64,000 bases of DNA from a virus (lineage: Duplodnaviria > Heunggongvirae > Uroviricota > Caudoviricetes), in the IMG/VR virus record IMGVR_UViG_2850808358_000005; one strand, 5' to 3'. How positions within the stretch are numbered: the stretch's first letter is position 1; the number at the start of each line of letters is the position of its first letter. This document shows, one piece after another, positions 33,431 through 49,259 of the stretch. The notes below the pieces were generated by a model, which was given only the letters and a program-made list of their open reading frames with translations, was not told where the DNA came from and made no database searches. Both the position numbers and the translations under genes were made by a program.

Positions 33431-33586
33431 TTACTTCCTGGATTCGTAGTCTACGAAGACAGCGACCTCCGTCTGGCCGGTTCGGATTCGTACCTCACAG
33501 AGGTCTTTCCTCGTTACCAGTGCCGTCACTATGACGGTTAAACAGATGACGATCAGGGCGATTAACATCGCCTTTTGCTGCTTCAT
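33431..33586 (-). CDS. hok: Hok/Gef-family type I toxin
   Basis: MKQQKAMLIALIVICLTVIVTALVTRKDLCEVRIRTGQTEVAVF... matches the Hok/Gef family; overlapping upstream frame (mok-like). Confidence 0.85.
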   Translation of the reverse strand: MKQQKAMLIALIVICLTVIVTALVTRKDLCEVRIRTGQTEVAVFVDYESRK

Positions 33587-33813
33587 AGCCTGCTTCTCCT
33601 TGCCTTTCGGCATGTAAGAGGCTAACCTACATGTGCAAAGCATGAAATTGGCCTCAGATTAATGTTAAGCGTCTTGCCGGACGCGTAATGTTAACTGGGG
33701 CTTTTCTCTATCTGCCTTTTGGTGTTCATGCCTGAAGCAGATAGCCTCAAGCACCCGCAGTCATTCTACTTACCTCGCCAATATGAAATCAATCAGAAAG
33801 GTGCCCCATAAAA

Positions 33814-38454: not shown

Positions 38455-38610
38455 ATGGATACTATCGATCTTGGCAACAACGAATCCCTGGTGTGTGGCG
38501 TGTTTCCCAACCAGGACGGCACGTTCACCGCGATGACGTATACCAAAAGCAAAACGTTTAAAACCGAATCTGGCGCGCGTCGCTGGCTGGAAAGAAACTC
38601 AGGTGAGTAA
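38455..38610 (+). CDS. Small early protein (YdfA/YdaF-like)
   Basis: 51 aa MDTIDLGNNESLVCGVFPNQDGTFTAMTYTKSKTFKTESGARRWLERNSGE, RBS GAGG upstream; not in ORF track (<60 aa). Confidence 0.55.
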   Translation: MDTIDLGNNESLVCGVFPNQDGTFTAMTYTKSKTFKTESGARRWLERNSGE

Positions 38611-38611
38611 T

Positions 38612-38740
38612 ATGGATTTCGACACAATCATGAAAAAGGCTTACGAAGAATACTTCGAAGGCCTTGCCGAAGGCGAAGAAGCTCTCAGCTTCAGTGAGTT
38701 TAAACAGGCGCTTTCCAGTTCGGCAAAATCTAACGGCTGA
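38612..38740 (+). CDS. Small early protein (YdfB-like)
   Basis: 42 aa MDFDTIMKKAYEEYFEGLAEGEEALSFSEFKQALSSSAKSNG, translationally coupled. Confidence 0.45.
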   Translation: MDFDTIMKKAYEEYFEGLAEGEEALSFSEFKQALSSSAKSNG

Positions 38741-38769
38741 TAAGCGAAACAGCACCGCGAGGAATCGGT

Positions 38770-38988
38770 ATGCAGAAACGTGACCCCGTCATCATCGCGC
38801 CAGACTATACCGATGATGAACTTTATGAGTGGATGCACCAGAAAATTCAGGCTGCGCAGGACCTGAAGTGGGCCAATGAAGCCCGGGCTAAGGAGGCCGA
38901 AAATCTGTCCGCTCAGGAGCAGGATATCACCAGGCTGGAAAAAGCAGCGGCATTAAGCATTGCCAGAATGATTACATACCAGCGTTAA
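38770..38988 (+). CDS. Small early protein (YdfC-like)
   Basis: 72-aa ORF. Confidence 0.45.
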   Translation: MQKRDPVIIAPDYTDDELYEWMHQKIQAAQDLKWANEARAKEAENLSAQEQDITRLEKAAALSIARMITYQR

Positions 38989-39106: not shown

Positions 39107-39577
39107 TCAAAAATCATTATTGAAATTGTAGTCCATGAGATACTCATTTTTACAGGAGGGACATTGAGTTTTCGTATATTTATCGCCTTCCTCGATAGGG
39201 AAAGGTTGCAATATAGATATTGCTCTCTTCGCAAAACATTCTGGACAAAAATACATGGTAATCTTGCCAGAGCTAGTATTGCACTGTCTGGCATACACAA
39301 TCGTTCCAGTAATCAATTGGCGAGGTTCGCAGTCTTCACTTTGGAACTTAAACTTTTCTATCTCCGTGAGTTTTGCTTTGAGCGCAGCCTCATTGCTTTT
39401 AGAGATTGTCAGCTCATCAATGAGAGACAAATATTCAAGCTGAATGCTTGACAACTTAGAGTTTATTTCAGACACAGCGCGATCAACCTCAGCCTGAGTT
39501 TTTGCTTCATTGAATAATTTTAACATTGATGCAGTCTCTTTGAGAGCTGACATCGCTAATGATAGATCAAACATCAC
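39107..39577 (-). CDS. Coiled-coil + C4 zinc-ribbon protein of unknown function
   Basis: 156 aa; N-terminal heptad-rich region, C-terminal CPEC...CPSC; AT-rich; antisense to early operon. Confidence 0.5.
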   Translation of the reverse strand: MMFDLSLAMSALKETASMLKLFNEAKTQAEVDRAVSEINSKLSSIQLEYLSLIDELTISKSNEAALKAKLTEIEKFKFQSEDCEPRQLITGTIVYARQCNTSSGKITMYFCPECFAKRAISILQPFPIEEGDKYTKTQCPSCKNEYLMDYNFNNDF

Positions 39578-39877
39578 TTGCTCACTCTTCTTATTGTTGG
39601 GGTATTCAGATTATACAAATTTCTTGTTGTTGGGGAATAACAGGAACCACCTCGCCTGACGTGGTTAAAAGCAGGCACACAACACGAAAGCGCACGGCGA
39701 GGTAGCTGGTCATAGATAGCCTGTCGTTAAATTTTCGCCGACCGTGCGCTTCCGGTTGTGGCAATCCGCGAAATGGCGCGGCGGTAAGTATGGCGGGGTT
39801 TCTCCGTTCCTCGCAAATGTCCACCGGGTTGTCAGGTTGACCATACGATTAAGTGACAACCCGCCACAACATCTCCA

Positions 39878-39936
39878 GATTGAGTTGTTGGCGATGAAAC
39901 TTTTGGCGGCATCAGTTTTGCTCTGCCGCCCTTTTT
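39878..39936 (+). ncRNA. DicF-like sRNA candidate
   Basis: ...TTGGCGGCATCAGTTTTGCTCTGCCGCCCTTTTT terminator-type 3' end resembling DicF as recalled, downstream of ydfABC-like genes. Confidence 0.4.
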
Positions 39937-40338
39937 AAAGTGAATTTTGTGATGCGGTGAATGCGGCTGAGCGCACGCGGAACAGTTAAAACAGTAAGGA
40001 AAATCCCTTATTCCGGCGTTAATTGTTAACTGGTTAACGTCACCTGGAGGCACCAGGCACCGCATCAACAAAATTTATTTAATTAATTATGCGCGAATTA
40101 ACCGTTATTCGTGCAGGGGATTTCCACACCTGAAATCCGCCGCTCTTTAACAATATGAACCGGGCTGTCACGTAAACCACAATTCGGGGTGCCGCCGAAT
40201 GCCCTGATATATCCGCAGAACCGGAACGCAGGGTCGGGATGTGACTTTTTGAACAAACCAAACTGGCGGCTTCCGCCACTTGCGAGAAAACTAAATTCAG
40301 ACTAAATTATAACTCCCAATGAAAAAAGGAACACCCAT

Positions 40339-40572
40339 ATGAAAATAGAAACTATCAGCTACATCAAGAAAAACGCAGCCTCACTGGACCTGGCGGAACC
40401 CATTCTTGTCACGCAGAATGGTGTTCCTGCATACGTAATTGAATCCTATGAGCAGCAACAGGAACGCGAGAACGCTATTGCGTTACTGAAACTTCTCACT
40501 ATTTCAGAAAACGACAAGTCTGAAGGTCGCGTGTTTTCAAAAGCACAGTTGCTGGATAGCTTTAACAACTAA
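40339..40572 (+). CDS. Phd/YefM-family antitoxin
   Basis: 77 aa, MKIETISYIKKNAASLDLAEPILVTQNGVPAYVIESYEQ pattern; sigma70-like promoter TTGCGA-17-TAAATT upstream. Confidence 0.65.
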   Translation: MKIETISYIKKNAASLDLAEPILVTQNGVPAYVIESYEQQQERENAIALLKLLTISENDKSEGRVFSKAQLLDSFNN

Positions 40573-40580
40573 GGTTAACT

Positions 40581-40901
40581 ATGCAGGTTGAATACACACT
40601 TACCGCCAGAACAAGCCTTGAGCAAATTGCCGACCATCTCCGGAGTAACGACATTGACCCACGCCCTGTAATAGCAGAAATTCTTGAGCGATTTGAAACA
40701 AGAGTTACTGCATTCCCGTCCGGATGTCAGTTATGCCCGGAGTTGCTCAAGCTTGGCGTGGCTAAATACAGAGAGTGCAACACACCAGAAGGCTACAGAG
40801 TGCTGTACTCTGTCGAGGAGGATATTATCACTGCACACGTGATTCTTTCCCAACGTCAGGATATTAAACAGTTACTGTTCAGACGATTGATCAGAGTTTA
40901 G
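40581..40901 (+). CDS. ParE/RelE-superfamily toxin
   Basis: 106 aa, starts 8 bp after the antitoxin; YRVLYSVEEDIITAHVIL beta-strand pattern. Confidence 0.6.
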   Translation: MQVEYTLTARTSLEQIADHLRSNDIDPRPVIAEILERFETRVTAFPSGCQLCPELLKLGVAKYRECNTPEGYRVLYSVEEDIITAHVILSQRQDIKQLLFRRLIRV

Positions 40902-40920
40902 CAATTACACATTTAGTAGC

Positions 40921-40950
40921 GCCCCTGTCCCCACCAGTTCAGGGGTTTTT
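40921..40950 (+). terminator. Rho-independent terminator after the TA pair
   Basis: cccctg ... cagggg hairpin followed by ttttt. Confidence 0.5.
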
Positions 40951-41220
40951 GCTTTCTGATATCCGGGATATTGACAAAGCAACCTGCATTGTTGCAAGAT
41001 GATCGCACTAGAAACAGTTAAGCGGTCATCCGCACCCGATAGCCTTGCGGCTTTTTTATGCCTGAAATACGGCACATCCGTACAAAGATCGGGTGGAGAG
41101 GCGTAATACAATACCCGTAAGGGGAATATGCCCGGAGCTTCTTAACTGGCTCTAGTTGACACCCGATCACCAGCTACTAACTGGTAATCGCAGACTAAAA
41201 CAGTTAAGGAGGCCACTAAA

Positions 41221-41775
41221 ATGGCTACTATCCCTGCCCTTTCTCACCCTGACGTAACCATCGAAAATGGTCGCGCTGTCACTACGTCTGTTGCTATTGC
41301 GGAGTTCTTCGGCAAACGCCACGAACGTGTGCTGGATAAAATTCGCAATTTAGACTGCTCATCAAATTTTAACGAACACAATTTTGTGTCGGTCACCTAC
41401 ACCGACACCAAAGGCGAAAAACGCCCAATGTACCAAATCACCAAAAACGGCTTCGTTTTCCTGGTGATGGGCTTCACTGGCAAAAAAGCCGCCGCATTCA
41501 AAGAAGCCTACATTGCTGAGTTCGACCGCATGGAGGCCGAACTGCGCCAGAATAATACCCTGCCCGCTGACAAAATTATCCCGGGAGATGGCCGTACTCT
41601 CGTTGTTCACTTCGACGAACACGGCAACATCAGATTCACCGAAACCGTTCCTGACGGTGCAATGGTCTGTACCCTGGATACTTTCCAGTTTTATCTGGAA
41701 AAACAGGGGTGGGCTCTTGTAAACCGGAGCGCAATTAAAAACATGACCGTAGAGCAGTTGCTTTCCTTAAAATAA
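41221..41775 (+). CDS. Rha-family phage regulatory protein
   Basis: N-terminal ...TSVAIAEFFGKRHERVLDKIRNL... Rha domain. Confidence 0.7.
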   Translation: MATIPALSHPDVTIENGRAVTTSVAIAEFFGKRHERVLDKIRNLDCSSNFNEHNFVSVTYTDTKGEKRPMYQITKNGFVFLVMGFTGKKAAAFKEAYIAEFDRMEAELRQNNTLPADKIIPGDGRTLVVHFDEHGNIRFTETVPDGAMVCTLDTFQFYLEKQGWALVNRSAIKNMTVEQLLSLK

Positions 41776-47020: not shown

Positions 47021-47185
47021 ATGTATAAAATTACAGCCACTATTGAAAAGGAAGGTGGTTCTCCTGCCAGCTGGACAAGATACTCAAAGACAAAACTAAC
47101 GAAATCAGAATGCGAAAAAAATGCTCTCAGGGGAAAAAGAAGCAGGCGCTTCCAGAGAGCAGAAAGTAAAACTGATAAATTTTAA
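47021..47185 (+). CDS. Hypothetical small protein
   Basis: GGAGG RBS before MYKITATIEKEGG... Confidence 0.3.
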   Translation: MYKITATIEKEGGSPASWTRYSKTKLTKSECEKNALRGKRSRRFQRAESKTDKF

Positions 47186-47316
47186 TTGCGAGAAACTTCA
47201 GTCCTCGTGAATTTCATTATATCCAGATTAGAACTTCATAGCTGATTATTAAAAATCAACCACACCCGCCAGTATTCTGTATATTTACTGGCGGTCATAT
47301 CGTGAGAGGTATGGCA

Positions 47317-48788: not shown

Positions 48789-49242
48789 GATTCCTGTTTT
48801 CGTCAACAAACAATAAAACCCTTTAAAATTAATGCGTTGAATAAATTTACGTTCATCTTTTAATCCCTGGCACGTACCATTGCATATTAATACATTCAAC
48901 CAGTTACCATTTTTTTCGAGTTTTTTAGAGAAATTTTCGGGAATATTTCAGGTCAATCCATGCAGACGCAAGCAATTCCTGTATTGAATAATTCCGTAGC
49001 AATTATGTAAAATCATCTCCGGCTGATTTTCATTCAAACTCGCGCTATCGAACATCCATCAGCCAGCCGTGGCACGTTCTTGCATACGACGTGCTACGGT
49101 TTCCTTTACGATTTGGGGTTGCGACTTTACCTCTATTGATAATGCATTCCGGCAGAACGTTCAAATATGAAGTACGATGTTTAACTAACCGAAAAACAAG
49201 AACAATACGGTGCAAGCAAGCTATTCACAGTTAACTGAAACA

Positions 49243-49259
49243 GTATCGTTTTTTTACAG
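49243..49259 (+). promoter_or_regulatory. MxiE box, second copy
   Basis: GTATCGTTTTTTTACAG identical to the first copy. Confidence 0.8.

Follow-up and report, generated by a model that had tools for sequence, protein, structure and literature searches.

The window analyzed here is a 64,000-nucleotide (nt) stretch of viral DNA (Caudoviricetes; IMG/VR record IMGVR_UViG_2850808358_000005). Between its positions 38455 and 40950, genes resembling ydfA, ydfB and ydfC are followed by an opposite-strand gene, a non-coding leader, a shortened DicF-like element (the head), a structured RNA spacer and a toxin–antitoxin (TA) pair (Table 1). An initial annotation had described this locus as a DicF-like small RNA (sRNA) without dicB, the dicB position being taken by the TA pair. 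The comparisons reported below reveal homology to known operons, conserved RNA structure, module boundaries and combinatorial shuffling of modules. The locus is a mosaic form of the dicBF/kilS–kilR operon already known, and its parts are all of familiar kinds; it represents ordinary phage gene shuffling and not a new system.

Positions 39580–40920 of the window are 100% identical to the chromosome of E. coli VL40 (NZ_CM177011.1), and the surrounding prophage is lambdoid, of the Qin/Rac type. In the PGAP annotation of that chromosome, the prophage runs from a replication module through YdaS/YdaT-type genes and a DicA-like repressor to ydfA, ydfB and ydfC, and continues with an opposite-strand hypothetical gene, a Phd/YefM antitoxin, a RelE/ParE toxin, rha, ydaE, recE, gam, xis and int. 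No RNA gene is annotated between ydfC and the antitoxin. Homology of the dicF region to window positions 39584–40079 was found in 4719 of 5426 complete E. coli genomes. The TA cassette is present in 7 of the 5426, always at the same locus, and its DNA had no match among INPHARED phages.

Table 1. Features of the locus, followed by other RNAs found in the window at Rfam curated thresholds
Feature	Position	Strand	Remarks
ydfA-, ydfB-, ydfC-like genes	38455–38988	+	start of early-left dicBF-type operon; named by PGAP in identical record NZ_CM177011.1
Hypothetical 156-amino-acid (aa) gene	39107–39577	−	from open reading frame (ORF) list; PGAP hypothetical; phrog_1244, unknown function, E = 1.7e-35
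Conserved non-coding leader, two modules	39643–39880	+	module 1, 39643–39765; module 2, 39766–39880; alignments A1, A2, A4
Shortened DicF-like head	39895–39936	+	5′ tail; hairpin 39905–39930; U tract 39932–39936; shape of an intrinsic terminator
STnc100-like structured spacer	39943–40075	+	closing stem 39943–39959/40058–40075 enclosing four hairpins; ~130 nt
TA-cassette leader	40076–40338	+	~260 nt; ~90% conserved in all TA-bearing loci, Salmonella included
ATTCGG..CCGAAT palindrome	40182–40200		in TA leader
Hairpin	40264–40278		in TA leader
TTGCGA	40280–40285		in TA leader
AATTC-N5-AAATT	40294–40308		in TA leader
AAGGA ribosome-binding site (RBS)			in TA leader
Antitoxin, PfiA-like (Phd/YefM family)	40339–40572	+	PF02604; PfiA; phrog_2268 antitoxin
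Toxin, PfiT-like (ParE/RelE superfamily)	40581–40901	+	PF05016; PfiT; starts 8 nt past antitoxin stop
Intrinsic terminator closing the TA module	40922–40950	+	CCCCUG..CAGGGG then U5; −15.9 kcal/mol, z = −2.33
CssrB	1089–1271		score identical to second copy
CssrB	49068–49250		score identical to first copy
RalA	47027–47206		antitoxin of RalR
sok	33581–33756		
Four consecutive tRNAs	31043–31350		

The DicF position and its heads

No homologue of dicB, ydfD or kilR was detected in the 64-kb window (best tblastn E-value 0.29), so the reported absence of dicB stands. The TA pair does provide the next genes after the spacer, but it is unlikely to be a functional replacement of dicB, since the same cassette is also found behind other heads. 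The ETEC1746 and A34 loci retain kilR further downstream.

A set of 120 viral contigs, fetched with a 29-nt pattern taken from the spacer, contained at least eight types of head in the DicF position, all with a common GGCGG...CCGCCCUUUUU scaffold and the same conserved flanks. The gene that follows the spacer is dicB in most loci, and otherwise kilR, rha or the TA pair. The TA cassette occurs behind five kinds of head: canonical DicF (loci L135 and L137 of our collection), a KilS-type head (L003, L139), another head type in Salmonella (L127), a tRNA-like gene in E. coli A34, and the short head of the window, L136 and L138. Because the cassette accompanies canonical DicF and four other heads alike, its pairing with a degenerate DicF in the window is a coincidence of mosaicism. 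DicF and KilS, the latter a K-12 sRNA verified by Northern blot within the 5′ untranslated region of kilR (PMC8175672), look like alleles of one locus.

In A34 (L002 4240–4317), the tRNA-like gene lies exactly in the DicF position, between the same leader and the terminator tail plus spacer. PGAP labels it ‘tRNA-OTHER’ and the Rfam tRNA model scores it at 44.2 bits; ARAGORN reported no tRNA in A34 despite this call, and none in the window region. Two side observations concern KilS: in the Rac prophage of K-12 (L140 2406–2503), it ends at a DicF-type terminator, with the same STnc100-like spacer and then kilR behind it, and the paper that named KilS (PMC8175672) leaves DicF unmentioned.

The initial annotation described the head as a terminator-ended, DicF-resembling element. 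The resemblance holds for position and shape: a GGCGG...CCGCCC hairpin ending in a U tract follows ydfABC and the leader. Full membership in the family does not hold, and the covariance-model search that had been proposed for DicF gave a negative answer. No DicF was found anywhere in the window at the curated (gathering) threshold, and a permissive Rfam search of 39500–41300 (1.8 kb) matched the DicF model (RF00039) at 39895–39931 with 27.9 bits (E = 0.0017), well short of the 48-bit cut-off. On the same model, K-12 DicF scores 76.7 bits. Two gaps interrupt the alignment, one of 11 nt in the loop and one of 4 nt close to the 5′ end of the head. Where K-12 reads CAGUUUU-ACUCCGUGACU-GCUCUGCCGCC, the window reads CAGUUUU-GCUCUGCCGCC, so that the 11 nt of ACUCCGUGACU are missing. 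The 5′ end of DicF, UUUCUGGUGAC, which pairs with xylR (PMC5069750), is likewise absent, and GGCGAUGAAACU stands there in the window. The hairpin itself has a 7-bp GC-rich stem (GGCGGCA/UGCCGCC) and a 12-nt loop, UCAGUUUUGCUC, followed by U5 (folding energy −13.7 kcal/mol). Given that 11 nt of the ftsZ-pairing region are lost, termination may be nearly all that the shortened element still does.

It could be asked whether the short head is nonetheless a working trans-acting sRNA, either a weakened ftsZ repressor or the carrier of a new seed. In DicF, it is the 3′ part that pairs with the ftsZ RBS, and full repression further requires another paired block immediately 5′ of the RBS, as seen with the DicF23 mutant (PMC5069750). 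The loop of the short head, CAUCAGUUUUGCUCUG, can still pair with ftsZ positions −13 to +3, the scaffold on which its type and the other heads are built also carries DicF and KilS, both verified Hfq-associated sRNAs, and the same short head is present in three independent records. However, the loop pairing amounts to −11.7 kcal/mol compared with −18.8 kcal/mol for K-12 DicF, and shuffled loops pair as well in 15% of trials (7% for K-12 DicF). Moreover, the block that pairs upstream of the RBS is out of register in the short head, and the co-fold binding energy with ftsZ, which like the loop pairing is suggestive only, is −5.1 kcal/mol compared with −9.3 kcal/mol for K-12 DicF, with the pairing predicted to run through the U tail. 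The low Rfam score and the rarity of the variant, which among complete E. coli genomes occurs in one of the 5426 (VL40), also speak against a dedicated regulator. We consider such a role doubtful. At the same time, because some complementarity remains and shuffles equal it at the rates given, a loss of function is unproven, and the short head is probably weakened. Energies of whole-molecule duplexes with ftsZ were discarded as non-discriminating, being dominated by an unrealistic opening of the terminator. The idea that the short head is exclusive to VL40 was also dropped: it holds for complete E. coli genomes but is ruled out by identical copies in two IMG/VR records (L136 and L138).

The STnc100-like spacer and the conserved leader

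According to the initial annotation, the head is followed by some 400 bp free of ORFs above 22 codons, which might hold another RNA or a regulatory structure and which include the inverted repeat tgatgcggtg/caccgcatca. A structured RNA is indeed present, but it takes up just the first ~140 nt of this stretch; the remaining ~260 nt are part of the TA cassette. The repeat is present (39950–39959/40058–40067) and lies at the center of a longer closing stem of 17 bp with one bulge. The claim that no ORF exceeds 22 codons is correct for ATG starts on the + strand within 39932–40338, where the longest has exactly 22 codons, but fails for GTG and TTG starts, which open mechanical ORFs of 38 aa on the + strand and 52–79 aa on the − strand, none of them annotated.

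The Rfam STnc100 model (RF02076) matched positions 39933–40102 with 38.9 bits (cut-off 47 bits; E = 1.7e-6), and its closing helix coincides with the inverted repeat. Sub-threshold matches were also obtained for four related loci (33.9–38.5 bits; K-12 dicF–dicB spacer, 34.4 bits). By score, therefore, the domain falls outside the STnc100 family, but it has the same architecture: the cmscan alignment and the consensus fold both display a closing stem, a 5′ hairpin, a variable middle and a CCNGGAGGCACCNGG hairpin. The canonical STnc100 3′ end, GCCCCUC..GAGGGGC followed by U's, gives a stand-alone form with its own 3′ terminator hairpin, and this form is not seen in the window. Here, the domain runs into the TA leader, and in other loci it is followed by the RBS of dicB or kilR.

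The minimum free energy of positions 39880–40075 is −66.6 kcal/mol (z = −3.39). Among the 52 distinct spacer variants used for the consensus fold, all helices are kept (31 pairs). Variation in the closing stem is of the wobble kind only (CG 44, UG 7 and CU 1 at one pair; GC 35 and GU 17 at another), and two pairs of hairpin 3 are altered on both sides. Although no variant lacks the middle hairpin, its sequence and length are hypervariable; mean pairwise identity is 0.52 in the middle of the spacer versus 0.92 in its 3′ part.

The alignment also identifies the spacer as homologous to that between dicF and dicB in K-12 (L006 646–791), where the closing stem has 18 bp (L006 646–663/774–791) including two G–U pairs. 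The structured RNA is therefore not specific to this locus but is the same spacer as in K-12 dicF–dicB and Rac kilS–kilR. K-12 DicF has a 72-nt form with an end made by RNase III (PMC5069750; PMC9438474). This end (dicF+19) falls, counted from the annotated dicF start, at L006 654, within the 5′ arm of the closing stem, and we infer that the K-12 cut is tied to this stem.

Cuts in both arms of the stem would free a compact folded RNA. Conceivably, the STnc100-like domain is more than a processing site and gives rise to a stable sRNA with a regulatory role of its own, like STnc100 and PasD, which are detected prophage sRNAs of the late region. The domain has architecture and sequence blocks in common with STnc100, and its hypervariable middle hairpin is seed-like. 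On the other hand, the STnc100 score stays under the cut-off in all five loci tested, the canonical 3′ terminator hairpin is lacking, and the literature on K-12 dicF–dicB consulted for comparison describes no sRNA between dicF and dicB. We regard a released sRNA as less likely than not. As a separate observation, canonical STnc100 is preceded in several contexts (L144–L222), at a distance of about 65 nt, by an intrinsic terminator whose end, UUUUUUUUAAAUG, resembles the CCGCCCUUUUUAAAGUG junction after DicF.

Upstream of the head, the leader is homologous to the untranslated region between ydfC and dicF in K-12. A long-range helix of module 1 is 96% paired, with three pairs altered on both sides; in module 2, the helix GGGTTGTCA/TGACAACCC is 95% paired, with two pairs altered on both sides. 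Homologues of module 2 (window 39766–39880; L141 1488–1625) were found in phage P1, phage cdtI and an Actinobacillus phage, and the module matched no Rfam family. Further details were noted in passing. Module 1 contains an invariant hairpin, ACCAC/GUGGU, and a pseudoknot may form between the CCUG of its loop and a CAGG further downstream (Rac-type copies have CCCGG/CCGGG instead). Near copies (~90% identity) of the first 37 nt of module 1 adjoin the annotated sieB promoter of P22 and lie in the sieB–ral interval of lambda. Module 2 includes a helix, GGGUUGUCA/UGACAACCC, that keeps its pairing through compensatory changes. The P1 copy of module 2 lies 3′ of dmt and is followed by a terminator, with tRNA-Asn and tRNA-Thr about 500 nt further on.

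A skeptical view would hold that the conserved flanks are mere recombination linkers from a recent common ancestor, with incidental structure and no RNA function. The flanks do coincide with the points at which modules are swapped, most copies are near-identical, which makes covariation sparse, and the first 37 nt of the leader recur at a module boundary in lambda and P22. Nevertheless, the changes that are observed preserve pairing, by wobble in the closing stem and by compensation in hairpin 3 and both leader modules, whereas slid-register controls are far lower. Taken with the fold z-score and the published RNase III processing at the corresponding place in K-12, this makes the linker explanation improbable.

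As initially described, ydfA-, ydfB- and ydfC-like genes precede the element; PGAP gives them these names, and the ydfC-like product matches phrog_1744 (E = 8.8e-37). The order of the ydfC-like gene and the DicF region is likewise right, but the two are not directly adjacent, as the minus-strand 156-aa ORF lies between them. Its product has no match in Pfam or PADLOC. The gene occupies the slot that is held by sieB in Rac, lambda and P22 (sieB is there in L003 as well). The protein has a CxxC...CxxC tail and a faint match to ECs_2282 zinc-binding proteins, and the gene appears AT-rich relative to its flanks when judged by eye.

The toxin–antitoxin cassette

Profile searches agree with the proposed Phd/YefM-like antitoxin and ParE/RelE-like toxin. 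The antitoxin matches PF02604 (PhdYeFM) with 30.1 bits, narrowly over the cut-off of 29.8 bits, and the toxin matches PF05016 (ParE_toxin) with 32.9 bits (cut-off 23 bits). The sole relatives with solved structures are PfiA and PfiT of the Pf4 prophage. Residues 1–67 of the antitoxin align with PfiA (9w3a_E; E = 7.9e-22), with T5, S7 and K10 kept and R11 replaced by K, and residues 3–102 of the toxin align with PfiT (9w3a_A; E = 8e-8). Judged from these alignments, the pair is homologous to PfiA/PfiT, a type II system. PADLOC returned no match for either protein. Fifty homologues of the toxin were found in Enterobacteriaceae, named RelE/ParE toxin, and relatives with 60–65% identity reside on conjugative plasmids, adjoining traI.

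Homology to dicB-type loci ends near 40080. From about this point, ~90% conservation in every TA-bearing locus identifies the sequence as the cassette's own leader. A putative 5′ remnant of dicB at 40085–40112 was rejected, because its local alignment to K-12 was matched by 8–36% of shuffles. Five hairpins are predicted in the leader, with covariation that is nearly nil; the fold z-score is −1.77 for the + strand and 0.03 for the − strand. It also contains AATTC- and AATTCGG-like repeats about 35–155 bp upstream of the antitoxin ATG. These resemble, in sequence only, the operator of pfiAT, where the PfiAT complex binds AATTC-N5-GAATT over the −35 box, plus AATTCGG repeats (PMC7264888; PMC13048266). 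A 14-codon ATG ORF within the leader, MRELTVIRAGDFHT (40089–40133), is open in six of six leaders compared, even though the encoded amino acids vary; no RBS is evident in front of it.

The ‘good sigma70-like promoter’ ascribed to the pair was not recovered: a scan requiring at least 9 of 12 matches found no site upstream of the antitoxin. By eye, the best candidate is TTGCGA(40280)-17-TAAATT(40303), which has 8 of 12 matches and is conserved among homologues. Could the pair lack a promoter and be expressed by early-left read-through upon induction or superinfection, so that growth arrest would functionally replace DicB or Kil? In addition to the outcome of the scan, the usual content of the slot, host-toxic division inhibitors, fits this idea, as does the toxicity of PfiT, overexpression of which leads to filamentous growth and lysis. 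However, pfiAT, with 9 bp between its two genes, is transcribed from a promoter of its own, which has its transcription start site 127 bp upstream of pfiA and the operator over the −35 box, and comparable repeats precede the antitoxin in the window. Moreover, the same 260-nt leader behind five heads, together with the cassette's own terminator, is a typical moron layout, and a close relative on conjugative plasmids is a stand-alone pair. A promoterless cassette thus seems unlikely.

Beyond the cassette, sRNA-Xcc1 (RF02221) was detected at 41087–41176 with 67.4 bits, above its cut-off, just 5′ of rha (41221–41775). ETEC1746 has the same sRNA-Xcc1/rha arrangement; in A34, isrK and a C4 antisense RNA occupy that slot.

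Interpretation and relation to known systems

The reading we favor, with a probability of roughly 0.7, is that of an early-left operon of a Qin/Rac-type lambdoid prophage, a mosaic counterpart of ydfABC–dicF–dicB. Its transcript would start with the conserved structured leader. A DicF-family head would follow that, minus 11 loop bases, may now be mainly a Rho-independent terminator hairpin. Next, the 17-bp closing stem of the STnc100-like spacer would serve as a site for RNase III; in K-12, the enzyme cuts read-through transcripts 19 nt past the terminator and so separates the small RNA from the downstream mRNA. Instead of dicB or kilR, the operon would then carry an autonomous TA ‘moron’ made up of its ~260-nt leader, the PfiA-like antitoxin, the PfiT-like toxin and a terminator. 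By homology to PfiAT, the TA complex may repress its own promoter through the AATTC-type repeats. Loss of the antitoxin would leave free toxin and result in cell arrest or death, which could stabilize the prophage or tune its induction.

Several points weigh against this reading. The closing stem of the window has a bulged A that K-12 does not have. Covariation in the spacer is limited, 29 nt being fixed by the fetch pattern and most copies being closely related. The toxin is only ~30% identical to PfiT, and with no consensus promoter in front of it the TA pair might depend on read-through. Partial complementarity to the ftsZ RBS remains in the head, and neither the short head nor K-12 DicF clearly beats shuffles. 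Finally, transcription, termination and RNase III cleavage of the window copy are predictions from sequence, as are the position of the promoter, the activity of the toxin and any regulation by the shortened head.

The DicF terminator and the folded spacer are kept here although the locus has lost the DicF seed as well as the gene for a division inhibitor, which argues for a scaffold role of their own, possibly in termination, processing or insulation. A broader and more speculative idea, suggested by the sequence comparisons, is that lambdoid and P1-like phages could use the DicF position generally as a small-RNA cassette whose contents can be swapped, with a fixed folded scaffold and interchangeable heads. 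If so, the pseudoknot-bearing leader and the STnc100-like domain cut by RNase III would form a fixed processing scaffold, into which DicF, KilS, at least five uncharacterized hairpins and a tRNA-like gene have been dropped as heads, and this scaffold would gate a slot for host-toxic genes (dicB, kilR, the ParE-like toxin). On this view, a single locus would have DicF and KilS as its alleles, and STnc100/PasD would represent a mobile processing domain and not ordinary base-pairing sRNAs. The locus itself, a rare mosaic, adds little.

How does the locus compare with known systems? With the dicBF operon of Qin in K-12 (ydfABC–dicF–dicB–ydfD), it has in common the upstream genes, the ~240-nt leader, the terminator scaffold and the post-terminator spacer with a long closing stem. 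It differs from that operon in its head, which lacks 11 loop bases and has another 5′ end, in the minus-strand gene inserted 3′ of ydfC, and in the TA cassette and sRNA-Xcc1/rha module that stand in place of dicB and ydfD. The KilS/kilR system of Rac (b4833; PMC8175672) has a DicF-type terminator (GGCGGCAUCAG...CUGAUGUCCGCCCUUUUU) and the same spacer, followed by a division inhibitor, and a KilS-type head also precedes the TA cassette in ETEC1746; it differs in its loop sequence, its shorter leader and the presence of kilR downstream. STnc100/PasD and the window domain share the closing stem GYRUGGUG/CACCRYRC, the GUGAAU junction, a small 5′ hairpin, a variable middle and the CCNGGAGGCACCNGG hairpin. 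In contrast to STnc100/PasD, the window domain scores below the family cut-off and is located in an early-left operon rather than in the late region; it has no terminator of its own, being intra-operonic and directly 3′ of another terminator. The locus joins DicF, KilS and STnc100/PasD, three separately named RNAs, in one architectural family.

As for PfiT/PfiA of the P. aeruginosa filamentous prophage Pf4 (PDB 9w3a), the window pair differs in residing in a lambdoid E. coli prophage, in its toxin (~30% identity) and in having a putative operator and promoter. In other respects the two systems are alike: the N-terminal DNA-binding domain of the antitoxin is highly similar, the toxins belong to the same superfamily and align nearly end to end, the gaps between the genes are nearly equal (8 nt and 9 bp), and both pairs are prophage-borne and preceded by AATTC-type repeats. 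A PfiAT-type TA system, known from a Pseudomonas filamentous phage, is thus now placed in enterobacterial lambdoid prophages.

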